Of a stretch of 64,000 nt of DNA, positions 1-4,511 are shown one piece after another (within the stretch, counting starts at the first letter, position 1; each line of letters begins with the position of its first letter). The stretch is from positions 1 through 64,000 of the forward strand of contig CAWIIV010000013.1 in assembly GCA_963836205.1 (NCBI GenBank). The letters are read 5' to 3'. The DNA is from an uncultured Acidimicrobiia bacterium. Lineage in GTDB: Bacteria > Actinomycetota > Acidimicrobiia > Acidimicrobiales > AC-14. A program made the translations under genes and the position numbers. The notes under the pieces are model-generated. The model was not told the DNA's origin. It saw only the letters and a program-made list of their open reading frames with translations, and did not search any database.

Positions 1-785
1 CGGAGCTGCGGGAGCCCTTCGGCCGGCTGTTCACCCAGGGCATGATCCGGATGGACGGGTCGAAGATGTCGAAGTCGAGGGGCAACCTGGTCGCCCCCGA
101 GCAGTACTTCTCGACGGTGGGCGCCGATGCCCTGCGCCTGTTCCACCTGTTCGTCGGGCCCCCGGCCGACGACGTCGACTGGACAGCGGAGACCGACAAC
201 GTCATCGACGGCGCCGGCCGCTACCTGGCCCGCGTGTGGCGGCTGGCCATGGGCGAGGTGGAAGCGGTAGAGATGGCCGAAGGCACGGCGCCGCCCGGCC
301 CCCCGGGCAGCCTGGAGCGGGCCACCCACCAGCTCATCTCCCGGGTGAGCGACGACTACGCCCGCTGGTCGTACAACACCGCGGTGGCGGCGTGCATGGA
401 GTTCACCAACCTCCTGTACAAGCACGTCCAGGCCGGTACCGAGCGGGCGTCGGTGAAGTTCGCGGTCGACAGCCTGCTCCTGCTGCTGGCGCCGATGGTG
501 CCCCACGTCACCGCCGAGCTGTGGGAGGGCCGCCACCCGGGCGAGCACATCCACGAGCTGCCGTGGCCGACGTTCGACGCGGCCCGGGCGGCCGCCCTCA
601 CCGCCACCATGGTGGTGCAGGTCAACGGCAAGGTCCGCGACAAGATGGAGGTCGACGTCGGGATCGGGCCCGACGAGATGGAACGTCTGGCCCTGGCATC
701 GTCGAAGGTGCAGGCCACGCTCGACGGGCGCACCCCGAAGAAGGTGGTCACCCGCCCGCCGAAGCTCGTCAACCTGGTGGTGTAG
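1..785 (+). CDS. leuS: Leucyl-tRNA synthetase, C-terminal part (5' end outside window)
   Basis: KMSKS class I motif, GADALRLF, YNTAVAACMEF, PMVPHVTAELWE and VQVNGKVR C-terminal domain typical of LeuRS. Confidence 0.93.
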   Translation, partial: ELREPFGRLFTQGMIRMDGSKMSKSRGNLVAPEQYFSTVGADALRLFHLFVGPPADDVDWTAETDNVIDGAGRYLARVWRLAMGEVEAVEMAEGTAPPGPPGSLERATHQLISRVSDDYARWSYNTAVAACMEFTNLLYKHVQAGTERASVKFAVDSLLLLLAPMVPHVTAELWEGRHPGEHIHELPWPTFDAARAAALTATMVVQVNGKVRDKMEVDVGIGPDEMERLALASSKVQATLDGRTPKKVVTRPPKLVNLVV

Positions 786-813
786 GGCTCGCCTTGGCGG
801 CCAGTACGAACGG

Positions 814-1245
814 GTGATCCCGTGGGCGGACAGTGCCGGCGTGGTGGAGCTCCCCGACGGCCGCCGAGTTCGCGGGCGCGGCCTGCGCCACCCGCCGCCT
901 GACGGTCCCGATCCGGAGTTCGCGCTCTACCTCCTTGCTCGCGACCCCGGGCCCTTTGCCTGGGAGCACCGTTGGGTGCGGTGGCCCGACTTCCGCACTC
1001 CGGCGTCCACCGACGACGCCGTCGCCGCCCTCCGGGAGGCGTACGGCCGCTGTGGGGGGGAGCGGGTGGAGATCGCCTGCGGGGGAGGTGTCGGCCGCAC
1101 CGGGACGGCGTTGGCGGGCATGGCCGTGCTGGCCGGAGTCCCGCCGGCGGAGGCGGTCGACTGGGTGCGCCGACGGTACAACCGGCGGGCGGTCGAGACC
1201 CCGTGGCAACGACGATGGGTTCGCCACCTCAGGGCCGGTCGGTAG
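814..1245 (+). CDS. Protein-tyrosine/dual-specificity phosphatase family protein
   Basis: WPD loop (RWPDF) and CX5R P-loop IACGGGVGRTG; AVET..Q C-terminal motif. Confidence 0.85.
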   Translation: MIPWADSAGVVELPDGRRVRGRGLRHPPPDGPDPEFALYLLARDPGPFAWEHRWVRWPDFRTPASTDDAVAALREAYGRCGGERVEIACGGGVGRTGTALAGMAVLAGVPPAEAVDWVRRRYNRRAVETPWQRRWVRHLRAGR

Positions 1246-1269
1246 GGCGGCGGATACCGTTGGTCCCGG

Positions 1270-1659
1270 GTGTTCCTCTCCCTCGACTTCGTGTACGTGC
1301 CGACGGCCGACGTCGACGCCACCGCCGACCGGTACGTGGCAGCCATTGGGGCGGAGCTGCTCTGGAAGGTGCGGGGGATGGGGACGGTGGTGGCGTGCCT
1401 GCGGGTGTCGGATAACGGGCCGTCCGTCCTCCTCTCGGGTCACCTGCAGGGCGACAACCCGGTCCTCGTCTGGCGGGTGGCGGACTACACGGAGGCGGTG
1501 GCGGCCCTGCGGGCGGGTGGCATCGCCGACATCGACGAGCTGGAGATTCCTCACGGACCGTGTGCCGGCTTCCGGGCCCCCGGCGGCCAGCGCATGGCCG
1601 TCTACCAGCTGGTCCGTCCCGGAGCCGACGCCCATTTCGCGGGCCGAATCGACGACTGA
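1270..1659 (+). CDS. VOC/glyoxalase-like protein
   Basis: 129 aa, two beta-alpha-beta-beta-beta halves (DFVYVPTADVD..., VWRVADY...EIPHGPCAGFRAPGG). Confidence 0.7.
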   Translation: MFLSLDFVYVPTADVDATADRYVAAIGAELLWKVRGMGTVVACLRVSDNGPSVLLSGHLQGDNPVLVWRVADYTEAVAALRAGGIADIDELEIPHGPCAGFRAPGGQRMAVYQLVRPGADAHFAGRIDD

Positions 1660-1742
1660 ACCAGCTCAGAGCGAAGGAGAGATGCGATGGCGCTGAACGC
1701 CTACCTCACGGTGAAGGGCCAGCAGCAGGGCGACATCAAAGG

Positions 1743-3155
1743 GGTTCTTCGCGAAACCTGGTGATCGCGCCGCCTGAATGGCTTCCCCGTCATCATCGGC
1801 GATCCCGGCCTCAGCTCGCCAGCGCTGGCGGGTGACCGGAGCAGAACAGAAGCACCCGGACTCGGTAGTTGGCTCTGGAGGCGAACCCGTACGCCATTCG
1901 CTCCAGCACCTCGATGCGGGTGTTCACCCCCTCCGAGGCTCCGTTGGTGGCCCGGTCGGTCTTGTGGAAGTTGAGCGCCTCGACCCCCCAGCGGCAGAAC
2001 GTGGTGATGGCCGATCCCAGGTTGATTCCCGCGGCCAGGTAGGCGTCGGTGAACCAGTCCAGCGCTTGCTCGGCGTCGGCGTCGTTCTCGGCGCAGAACA
2101 CGACGTGAAATCTCTGCACCAGGCCCCACACCACGCCGAGCTCGGGAAGGGCGTCGAAGAGTGCGCCCAGGCGGGCCATCTCCTCGCCGCTGAGTCGGTC
2201 GAGCCGCTTCATCAGCAGGAACCGGGCCCGGAACACCTCGGCGTCATGCGGCTGGCCGAGGGGGCTGCGCTGGGCGTCCCGGCGGGCGCTGACCAGCACC
2301 TTGGCGAAGCCGCGCACGACATGGAACCGATCCGCCACGTGGCGGGCGTGGGGCAGGTGCTTGCGCACCGCAACCCGGTAGCATTCGGCCATGTCGGTCA
2401 CCACCACCGACACGCCCCCTCGCCAAGATGGGCTCTGAGCTGCGAGGAAGCCCCCCAGCACATCCGCCGAGCGGCCCTTGAGCACGGCGATGACGGCGCC
2501 CCGGTCGCCGTCGGTGAGGATGGTGGAGAACTGGCCCCGGCCCTTGCGCATCGACTTCTCGTCGACCAGCAGCACCCGGCACGGACGACGCCGTCGAGCC
2601 CGGGCCAGCAGCTCGCCCTCGGCCAGCACCAGGCGCATCACCCGGTGCCAGGACAGTCCGTGGCGGCGGGCCACGGCGGAAACGGTCATGTCCTTGGCGT
2701 CGGCCACCACCGCCCGGGCCAGTCGCCTGGTCATGCGGTCGACGAAGAACGGATGGCTCTCCGTCGTCGTCGTGCGACAGTTCTTGCACCGGAACCGGCG
2801 GCGGTGCCAGACCAGGGTGACGGGCCGTCCCGACACGGCCAGGTCGGCGATGCGGACCTTGCGGGTGGCATGCACCCGGGCCGTCTTGTGCCCGCAGGCC
2901 GAGCAGCGGATCACGTTGGCGATGGCCACCACCGCCACCACCAGGGACTCGGGCAGGTCCTCCACCACCTCCAGTACACGCACCGCGCGCAGGTGCAGGC
3001 GGATCGTCATAGCGTCGAGGGCAGCCACCAGGCCTCCTTGTTCGATCAGCTTCGTCACTGACCAGTTCAGGAGGCCCGGTGGCCCAGATGGTGGATGCCG
3101 GCTACGGCACCGGCGCCCCTTCACGAGAGGCCGTCACCAGCTTTCGCGAAGAGGG
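1743..3155 (-). mobile_element. ISL3-family insertion sequence (1413 bp)
   Basis: 8-bp direct repeat ATCAAAGG at 1735-1742 and 3156-3163; imperfect terminal IRs sharing TCTTCGCGAAA(C/G)CTGGTGA; internal ISL3 transposase. Confidence 0.92.
1811..3124 (-). CDS. ISL3-family transposase (true start probably near 3010-3050)
   Basis: Zn-finger CSACG...RFRCKNC, HTH region, DDE motifs LVDEK, VTDM, ADRFHVV, TNGASEGVNTRI. Confidence 0.92.
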   Translation of the reverse strand: MKGRRCRSRHPPSGPPGLLNWSVTKLIEQGGLVAALDAMTIRLHLRAVRVLEVVEDLPESLVVAVVAIANVIRCSACGHKTARVHATRKVRIADLAVSGRPVTLVWHRRRFRCKNCRTTTTESHPFFVDRMTRRLARAVVADAKDMTVSAVARRHGLSWHRVMRLVLAEGELLARARRRRPCRVLLVDEKSMRKGRGQFSTILTDGDRGAVIAVLKGRSADVLGGFLAAQSPSWRGGVSVVVTDMAECYRVAVRKHLPHARHVADRFHVVRGFAKVLVSARRDAQRSPLGQPHDAEVFRARFLLMKRLDRLSGEEMARLGALFDALPELGVVWGLVQRFHVVFCAENDADAEQALDWFTDAYLAAGINLGSAITTFCRWGVEALNFHKTDRATNGASEGVNTRIEVLERMAYGFASRANYRVRVLLFCSGHPPALAS

Positions 3156-3623
3156 ATCAAAGGCGGCGTGACCCAGAAGGGCCGGGAAGGGACGATGCTG
3201 GTCTACGCCGCCACCCACGACGTGGCGTCGCCCCGTGACATGGCGTCGGGTCAGGCCTCGGGCCGGCGGATGCACAAGCCGTTCGTCATCACCAAGGCGG
3301 TCGACCGGTCGACGCCGCAGCTCTACCAGGCCATGGTGACGAACGAGAACCTGCCCGCGTGGACCCTTCGCTTCTTCCGGACGGCGACGGCCGGGGCCGG
3401 TGGCCCGGGCGTCGAGGTGCAGCACTACACGGTCAAGCTGACGAACGCCTCGATCTCTGGGATCGGCTTCCGCATGCCCAGCAACCAGGATCCCGACCTG
3501 GCCCGGCTGGCCGAGTACGAGGAGGTCGCCTTCGTCTACCAGCGCATCGAGTGGACGTGGGTCGACGGCGGGATCACGGCCGCCGACGACTGGAACGCGA
3601 CGAATCTCTGACCTCTTTCGGGA

Positions 3624-4511
3624 CTACGGGCCCTGATCGCGCAGGAACTTCTCCAGCTCGGCGGCCAGCTCGTCGCCCGAGGGGAGGTTGGCCCAGCCGG
3701 CGGCGATGGCGCTCTGGTTCTCGGCCTCGGCGTCGAACTGCGTCTCCAGCTGGCGGATCAGGGTGCGGTGCTGGTTGCTGTTCGACGCCAGCTCCTCGAG
3801 CCGGCGGTTGGTGTCCTCGGCCGCCTCCTGCAGGTCGGGGGCCTCGACGACGACGCCCGTCACCCGGGCCAGGCCGTCGAGGAGTTGGAGGCTGGCCGCG
3901 GGATAGGGCAGCCCGGCCGCGTAGTGCGGCACCCGGGCCCAGAGGCCGATGGTGGGGACGCCGTCGACGCCCAACCGTTCCCCGAGGGCGGCCAGGATGC
4001 CGGCCGGAACCTGCAGGGTGCCGGAGACCACACCGACCGACGTCGCCAGCTCGGACGACGACGCGCTGGCGGCCAGGGGCGAGGTCCGGGTGTGGGGCAC
4101 GGGGGCGGGGAACCCGGCCATCCCGACCAGGAGGCGGGCGCCGAACATCCCCGCCAGCTCGGCCACCGCTTCCGCAAACGCGTGCCACCGGCTGTCGGGC
4201 TCGGGGCCGACGAGGACGAGGACGTCGTGGCCGAGCTCGTCGCGTCCTGAGCGCAGCTCGATCTGGGGCCAGCTGAGGTCCTGGTAGACGCCGTCCTCCA
4301 TGAGCGAGATCGGGCGGCGGGCCCGGTAGTCGATGAACTCGTCGGAGTCGAAGGTGGCCACCAGCTCGGTGGGGATCGCCTTGAGCAGGGCGGCCATCGC
4401 CCCCGCCCCGGCCAGCCCGGCGTCGATCCACCCGTCGGGAGCGAGCACCAGCGCCGGTTGCTCGAGCTCCGGTCGAGTGTGGATCTGGTAGAGCCGCGGA
4501 TCTTGAGCCAT
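3624..4511 (-). CDS. PAC2-family proteasome assembly chaperone
   Basis: DGWIDAG, FIDYRARRP, GPEPDSRW, PVPHTR, LWARVPHY, LPSGDELAAELEKFLR. Confidence 0.88.
   Translation of the reverse strand: MAQDPRLYQIHTRPELEQPALVLAPDGWIDAGLAGAGAMAALLKAIPTELVATFDSDEFIDYRARRPISLMEDGVYQDLSWPQIELRSGRDELGHDVLVLVGPEPDSRWHAFAEAVAELAGMFGARLLVGMAGFPAPVPHTRTSPLAASASSSELATSVGVVSGTLQVPAGILAALGERLGVDGVPTIGLWARVPHYAAGLPYPAASLQLLDGLARVTGVVVEAPDLQEAAEDTNRRLEELASNSNQHRTLIRQLETQFDAEAENQSAIAAGWANLPSGDELAAELEKFLRDQGP

Follow-up and report, generated by a model that had tools for sequence, protein, structure and literature searches.

The window analysed here is a stretch of 64,000 nucleotides from an uncultured Acidimicrobiia bacterium (its genome, G000, is 88.64% complete with 1.38% contamination), and near its left end lies an hcp gene, of the family that forms the tube in type VI secretion systems (T6SS), split by an insertion sequence of the ISL3 family. 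The locus is laid out as follows.

1270..1659, plus strand: gene for a 129-residue protein with no Pfam or NCBIfam match, the left border of a single-gene hcp slot
1674..1679, plus strand: Shine-Dalgarno-like AAGGAG in the sequence, 7 nucleotides 5' of the hcp start codon
1687..1742, plus strand: hcp 5' piece (codons 1 to about 19), whose last bases are the left repeat of the target duplication
1735..1742, plus strand: left copy of the 8-bp target-site duplication, ATCAAAGG
1743..3155, minus strand: ISL3-family insertion sequence of 1,413 bp, recognised by its terminal repeats, transposase and copies
1811..3028, minus strand: ISL3 transposase (Pfam DDE_Tnp_ISL3, zinc ribbon, helix-turn-helix; NF033550)
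3156..3163, plus strand: right copy of the 8-bp target-site duplication, ATCAAAGG
3156..3611, plus strand: hcp 3' piece, 151 codons and stop, undecayed, matching PF05638 and TIGR03344
3624..4511, minus strand: convergent PAC2-family gene (PF09754, E 2e-52), the right border of the hcp slot

The neighbours of hcp comprise a phosphatase-like gene, the 129-residue gene (tentatively glyoxalase/VOC-like), PAC2 and a thioredoxin gene. Excision of positions 1743-3155, leaving one copy of the repeat, rejoins the two pieces into a frame from the ATG at 1687 to the stop codon at 3609-3611, with 167 codons, no internal stop and one terminal stop, in agreement with a first-pass annotation of this DNA that had read an intact frame of about 170 residues, with its own Shine-Dalgarno sequence, across the element. 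The G+C content of hcp at third codon positions (GC3), about 0.94-0.95, is that of the host genes. The closest named record, L008, holds an intact 168-codon hcp between the same two neighbours, preceded by a similar purine-rich stretch; 14 of 16 codons of the 5' piece are the same in protein, the 3' piece is 80% identical, and this intact orthologue (L008/L096) confirms the join across the element. L008 carries an Actinomycetota label and the window encodes Lsr2 as well as PAC2, which upholds the actinobacterial origin assigned to the contig. As it stands, the window gene has no intact reading frame: the 5' piece runs into the element near codon 19 and meets a stop after 25 codons. An ATG at 3195 within the 3' piece does open the 138-residue frame that had been proposed to yield a truncated product, and public gene callers list it (P0048), but it starts at residue 30, and the product is probably non-working because residues 1-29, including the first of the strands predicted at 4-11 and 15-17, are missing. 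Met30 is private to the window copy, with isoleucine there in more than 90% of 115 distant homologues, and a working product from this start is unlikely. A scan of positions 700-3800 for sigma-70 promoters and terminators found nothing.

The element shows the full set of ISL3 features: a transposase (NF033550, 281.8 bits against a cut-off of 180) whose frame is open to 3124 and probably starts at GTG 3028 behind AAGGAGG, imperfect terminal inverted repeats with arms at 1746-1781 and 3117-3152, an 8-bp duplication and multiple copies. Eight base pairs is the norm for ISL3, and a match of that length at a given site has a chance probability of about 6e-5. Two further copies, on contigs C20 (99.7% identity) and C7 (99.6%), differ by 4-6 bases each; because the copies are near-identical and each has its own 8-bp duplication, the element must have moved recently. 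In all three copies the ends are asymmetric, reading inward GGTTCT at 1743-1748 and CCCTCT at 3150-3155. The rejoined hcp departs from consensus at 18 of 100 conserved columns, close to the 10-17 departures of five intact close homologues, and no clear decay of the window copy is seen. The recent knockout by ISL3 that the first-pass annotation had proposed is borne out by these data. In a search of sequencing runs for reads of the same strain without the insertion, the best run listed matched 0.14 of the words at most and no RNA run was listed; the four of 11 runs examined contained relatives only.

The 3' piece alone exceeds the curated cut-offs of both PF05638 (100.6 bits against 23.5, E 1e-28) and TIGR03344 (125.1 bits against 58.9, E 2.5e-36), and intact L008 reaches 103.6 and 140.4 bits, respectively, placing the gene in the Hcp/TssD family to which it had at first been assigned by eye. 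Its closest solved relative by sequence is 3HE1 (E 2.4e-27). An AlphaFold model of L008, built on a 23-row alignment (pLDDT 85), matches solved Hcp with template modelling (TM) scores of up to 0.85 (6A2V) and predicts the Hcp beta-sandwich fold, for the orthologue rather than the window copy; the intact product would probably assemble into a hexameric ring. The family is that of the T6SS-i Hcp/TssD proteins of TIGR03344 type (P. aeruginosa Hcp3, 3HE1; V. cholerae, 5MXN/5OJQ; C. jejuni, 6A2V). Unlike these, the window gene sits in an actinomycetote in whose genome no tssB, tssC, tssF or membrane-complex gene was found, and comparison with 3HE1 and 5MXN shows about nine residues missing from its subfamily after the first strand. 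The consensus with this gap of about nine residues is common to T6SS-linked members of the subfamily.

In the genus, hcp is a single accessory gene between two conserved genes, and in the window it has been recently knocked out by ISL3. The upstream gene adjoins PAC2 directly in G001 and G003, none of six PAC2 loci from five congeners has hcp, and in contigs from runs X2 and X7 the junction is likewise empty. Occupied sites occur in G005 and in the metagenome contig L115, where hcp adjoins PAC2, and across G000, G005 and L115 the gene is kept at this site at 80-90% protein identity. The genome of L008, G061, has the same gp19 coordinates and size as G005, which belongs to the same genus. In G001 the PAC2 region occurs twice (C28 and C34, L101 and L106), at 86-87% identity to the window, in a genome with 6% contamination.

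Does the host possess a machine to which this tube protein could belong? G000 has one PF05638 match, and in this 88.6%-complete genome neither the parts of a T6SS-i (the TssB/TssC sheath, TssF/TssG, TssA, TssM) nor the TssC of T6SSiii was found: profile searches gave no TssB (PF05591), TssC (PF05943), TssF (PF05947) or T6SSiii TssC (PF17541), and TssA, B, C, F, G and M of linked loci, used as tblastn queries, gave no match at E 1e-3. A ClpV query matched two proteins that appear to be Clp-type ATPases. To that extent the stand-alone status first claimed for hcp is corroborated. The window itself has no other match to a T6SS or extracellular contractile injection system (eCIS) family, as had been noted; all such matches in G000 lie on other contigs, where two loci stand out.

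C15:375.5-386.2 kb (L087): gp19-type eCIS locus, from profile matches
C8, L089:9242-10378: lone short sheath gene, from a sheath match among unrelated genes

The eCIS comprises a sheath gene, two gp19 genes, CIS_tube-LysM, VgrG, gp25, baseplate J and Tail_P2_I, with a PAAR match below cut-off; the only VgrG and PAAR matches in the genome are those of this cluster. It contains no hcp and is unlinked to the window gene, which likewise has no adjacent vgrG, PAAR or effector-immunity genes of the kind found in orphan hcp-vgrG-PAAR islands. Actinobacterial eCIS of the Afp/PVC type, with gp19 tubes, belong to the same ring-forming tube superfamily (PMC6899500), but their tubes are PF06841, whereas the window gene is PF05638, on another contig and outside the eCIS locus. 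A sheath and gp19 pair is present in most congeners, and a second ISL3 family, with five copies in the genome, has one copy just downstream of the C15 eCIS. The C8 sheath gene is without the usual N-terminal start motif. It is syntenic in congeners G001 and G002, both without window-type Hcp, and an obligate pairing of Hcp with this sheath is weakened by G001, which has no Hcp, and by G002, which has only a signal-peptide Hcp. Other lone sheath genes among unrelated genes were seen at L188, L189, L118, L181 and L182.

Lone hcp is not peculiar to this genome. In a set of 61 genomes made up of G000 and 60 relatives, with completeness of 90% or more in 35, PF05638 occurs in 12, PF05943 in none and gp19 in 18. 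Manual reading of the sequences divides the 12 into three kinds: the window subtype (G000, G005 and a frameshifted copy in G013), a type beside a methyltransferase gene (six genomes), and, in three genomes, forms that bear an N-terminal leader or a collagen stretch. Unpublished genomes enter these tallies (G008, G015 and G035) and the wider set (G103), and such genomes are part of the basis for the methyltransferase neighbourhood (L091, L092, L094), for L110 and for the lone sheath L182. In a phylum-wide sample, PF05638 was found in 8 of 221 genomes, G000 included; five of the other seven carriers were searched for PF05943 and lacked it, as did G057, with G237 outside the search. When GTDB was scanned with the 3' piece, the best 80 of 122 relatives gave 79 loci, for the most part 50-64% identical and spanning Myxococcota, Fibrobacterota, Bacteroidota, Planctomycetota, Pseudomonadota, Armatimonadota and Actinomycetota. 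Manual clustering of neighbours places 34 of the 79 within T6SS clusters. A search then covered the genomes of 41 among the 45 remaining loci (four same-isolate duplicates were omitted) and of one linked locus, and PF05943 was absent from 21 of these 42; within the 21, T6SSiii TssC was present in 4, a PF17482 sheath in 10 (G061 via G005) and none of the three sheath families in 9. In 201 genomes of Chitinophagaceae, the family of G062 by tree label, 27 had PF05638 (some weak or of other subtypes), none PF05943 and 62 gp19. One of the carriers, G483, is a single contig of 6,517,676 bp with a lone hcp of the window subtype and no match to PF05943, PF17541 or PF06841, VgrG and baseplate being outside that search. 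Lone hcp thus recurs across phyla in genomes without a detected T6SS-i sheath.

Several other arrangements of the family came to light in these scans. In Polyangiaceae, T6SS loci (L014, L018, L020, L021, L023, L028 and others) carry two tandem hcp genes of the window subfamily, adjoining tssF/tssG and an FHA gene. Leader-like N-termini precede Hcp domains at L098, L099, L100, L110, L111, L113, L136, L138, L146 and L178, two of them with collagen repeats and several in genomes without T6SS-i TssC. A loop motif corresponding to about residues 36-70, separate from the rest of Hcp, is found in proteins with leader-like N-termini (L149-L157), as five to six tandem copies in two proteins of about 950 residues (L149:3486-6347, L153:1834-4716) and as one copy in proteins of 160-210 residues (L150-L152, L154-L157). 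At L175 (G383 C25), an open frame of about 2,000 residues encloses a PF05638 match, and the genome has three more matches of equal score. A viral origin found little to recommend it: the viral_contigs set contained no relative and the phage set three distant records at no more than 40% identity. The plasmid set gave 196 records, all below 60% identity.

Pairwise dN/dS, the ratio of nonsynonymous to synonymous rates, points to purifying selection on lone hcp: three Bacteroidota pairs gave 0.07-0.10, a pair from Solirubrobacterales 0.38, and the window 3' piece against L008 0.39; these values come from simple counting, which is inflated at high GC3, and two further pairs were saturated. Thirty-two adjacent genes, picked by hand at 19 lone loci, fall into unrelated families (truB, MutS, ABC transporters, rpoB, HSP20 and others; eight had no match), with no VgrG, PAAR, Rhs or toxin family among them. 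There are two exceptions to this isolation: at L053 hcp directly precedes two gp19 genes and is itself preceded upstream by PAAR and Phage_base_V genes, and at L118 it lies two genes from a lone sheath gene. A complex prediction for two copies of the L118 Hcp with that sheath gave no answer, scoring 0.00 where the mark is 0.32. In G062, G067 and G091 it is gp19 itself that stands alone among housekeeping genes with no sheath found, and lone gp19 tube genes in genomes of this kind were located at four places.

L159:4079-4528, lone gp19 tube gene
L160:4718-5245, lone gp19 tube gene
L167:4824-5366, lone gp19 tube gene
L165:4618-5190, lone gp19 tube gene, with a weak match to a twin-arginine translocation (TAT) signal

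We tentatively favor, among the explanations considered, a model in which the lone Hcp acts as a decoy in conflict. The intact product would fold as Hcp and, carrying no signal peptide, would form free hexameric rings in the cytoplasm; polymerization of Hcp requires a tip complex (review PMC8718954), and with none available the rings would not extend into a tube. A free ring kept as a dispensable conflict gene could then act by either of two routes, holding incoming Hcp-type cargo toxins in its lumen or mis-assembling with foreign tail-type structures. For the first route, Hcp lumen surfaces are described as binding diverse cargo permissively and may suppress toxicity (10.64898/2026.06.15.732508); for the second, tail-assembly blocking is a known route of defence (PMC11364771), and mis-assembly between contractile machines through shared Hcp-type subunits has been the subject of speculation (PMC6899500). 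The gene would spread by single-gene transfer and be lost easily, as in the window. A role in conflict is favored because hcp is patchy, has moved between phyla and is easily lost. A role for the ring itself is suggested because some genomes keep lone genes of both gp19 and Hcp, two unrelated tube families with only the ring fold in common. A broader proposal, which we regard as somewhat less probable than the case of Hcp alone, is that lone tail-tube genes (Hcp and, in parallel, gp19) lacking a matching machine are retained in several phyla as a class of cytoplasmic decoy rings that trap injected T6SS cargo or disturb the assembly of foreign tails; the window would then show a fresh natural knockout of one of them in a monoderm. 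Either form would be a secretion-independent role of the kind that the first-pass annotation had raised; its interpretation as a whole is supported in part by our results, and none of the three outcomes that it named as refuting was observed.

A number of observations weigh against the decoy model. PADLOC matched none of seven proteins, no defence genes were seen among the 32 neighbours, and in an alignment of 18 lone with 18 linked rows the two sets have the same majority residue in every column, which speaks against a specialized lone-Hcp signature; mean identity among themselves is lower for lone copies (60%) than for T6SS-linked ones (71%). Contractile parts are common in carriers: PF17482 was found in 19 of 37 carriers and in nine of ten Chitinophagaceae carriers examined, T6SSiii TssC in 4 of 21 carriers and three of five Chitinophagaceae carriers, and even G483 has one lone sheath gene among housekeeping genes. 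Most carriers are incomplete metagenome-assembled genomes. Two of the three copies of the window subtype in the family sample are broken (G000, and the frameshift in G013), and the dN/dS of hcp against L008 (0.39) exceeds that of its two neighbours (0.16 and 0.22).

Ranking close behind is the possibility that the lone Hcp is a spare tube or cargo ring for an unlinked contractile system in the same cell (a gp19-type eCIS, a T6SSiii or a minimal lone sheath), in the manner of an orphan hcp in a T6SS-bearing proteobacterium; on present evidence we consider it a plausible though somewhat unlikely account. G000 does have the C15 eCIS, an unlinked system of the sort that the first-pass annotation had considered, and the C8 sheath gene, and lone copies retain the full T6SS-type consensus. 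The arrangements at L053 and L118 point the same way, as does the occurrence of gp19 with PF05638 above background, in 8 of 11 relatives with PF05638 against 9 of 49 without (Fisher p 0.001) and in 17 of 27 against 45 of 174 Chitinophagaceae (Fisher p 0.0002), although these counts are confounded by kinship and genome size, which overstates their significance. However, the C15 eCIS has two gp19 tubes and a CIS_tube gene of its own, so Hcp is not needed as its tube, and five congeners or family members (G001, G003, G004 and G006 in the genus sample, and beyond) have gp19 and a sheath with no PF05638 match. The synteny of the lone sheath in G001 and G002 also tells against this account, and 9 of the 21 carriers, in incomplete genomes, show no sheath family at all.

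Transfer debris is a less probable explanation, in which single hcp genes from T6SS loci of Myxococcota or Fibrobacterota type, with little or no function, are decaying, and the insertion in the window is one such loss. Lone and linked copies share one consensus, including a long loop at residues 39-58, and are intermixed in a quick tree (three short rows dropped); the patchy distribution, the differing neighbours, the broken window-subtype copies and the raised dN/dS relative to neighbouring genes would all fit. The quick tree suggested a repeated origin of lone copies, yet a single clade was not rejected (55 rows, p-AU 0.077). Set against decay are dN/dS values far under 1 in each of the five pairs for which one was obtained, retention of the same site in G000, G005 and L115, a GC3 (0.94) that matches host genes, and open frames that persist across several phyla at about 60% identity.

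A housekeeping-type role outside conflict, as a general chaperone, a small-molecule or metal binder or a scaffold, perhaps with a link to a methyltransferase in certain lineages, appears improbable. Two different Hcp types adjoin a DUF7059-MTS-DUF7782 methyltransferase in the same family (L090-L095, L097), and the signal-peptide and collagen-fused forms show that the fold is reused. But the methyltransferase link does not apply to G000, which has no close homologue (one 79-residue match, E 9e-4), no such gene lies near the 79 related loci, and patchy presence with easy loss fits a housekeeping role poorly. The Hcp-methyltransferase pairs were seen in seven genomes of the family, six convergent and one co-directional, three of them unpublished. 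Least probable of all is that a T6SS hides in the unassembled 11% of the genome or that the ATG-3195 product still works, for although completeness is 88.64% and gene callers list the product, PF05943 is absent from all 61 relatives, and the product begins at a private methionine with residues 1-29 missing.

How does the window gene stand beside systems already described? Orphan hcp or hcp-vgrG-PAAR islands resemble the window in placing hcp outside a T6SS cluster (PMC13098142; 10.1101/031039), but such islands typically include genes for spike, effector and immunity proteins and are taken to serve a complete T6SS elsewhere in the genome, whereas here a single gene stands with no effector beside it, in a genome in which no T6SS was found. 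Isolated hcp genes are recorded on 116 plasmids (PMC13098142). In the account of Abby et al., diderm-type secretion loci were not found in monoderms, and genomes without a T6SS contain 8% of the small VgrG clusters (10.1101/031039). The Tai and Tab tail-assembly-blocking defences are also small single accessory genes and offer a possible model for a lone tube subunit; Tai genes differ in lying mostly in prophages and satellites of Proteobacteria and are not described as Hcp homologues in the portions available (PMC11364771), and the window gave no PADLOC match. A full-text literature search, in which subscription journals lay outside coverage, returned no title or abstract opening on effector-less chromosomal Hcp in T6SS-less Actinomycetota or Bacteroidota, though the supplementary tables of PMC13098142 may hold cases. 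The stand-alone Hcp is thus apparently an undescribed variant of a well-known family.

The window copy is only a pseudogene, and its interest lies in the class of genes that it exposes. The hcp gene is widely used as a marker of T6SS, and outside Proteobacteria that marker misleads, because PF05638 occurs in 20% of the sampled relatives and 13% of the Chitinophagaceae sampled, with no T6SS-i sheath found. The decoy model would be easy to test, since intact alleles, empty sites and a natural knockout exist within one genus. If true, a decoy ring would be a one-gene defence made from a part of the weapon itself.

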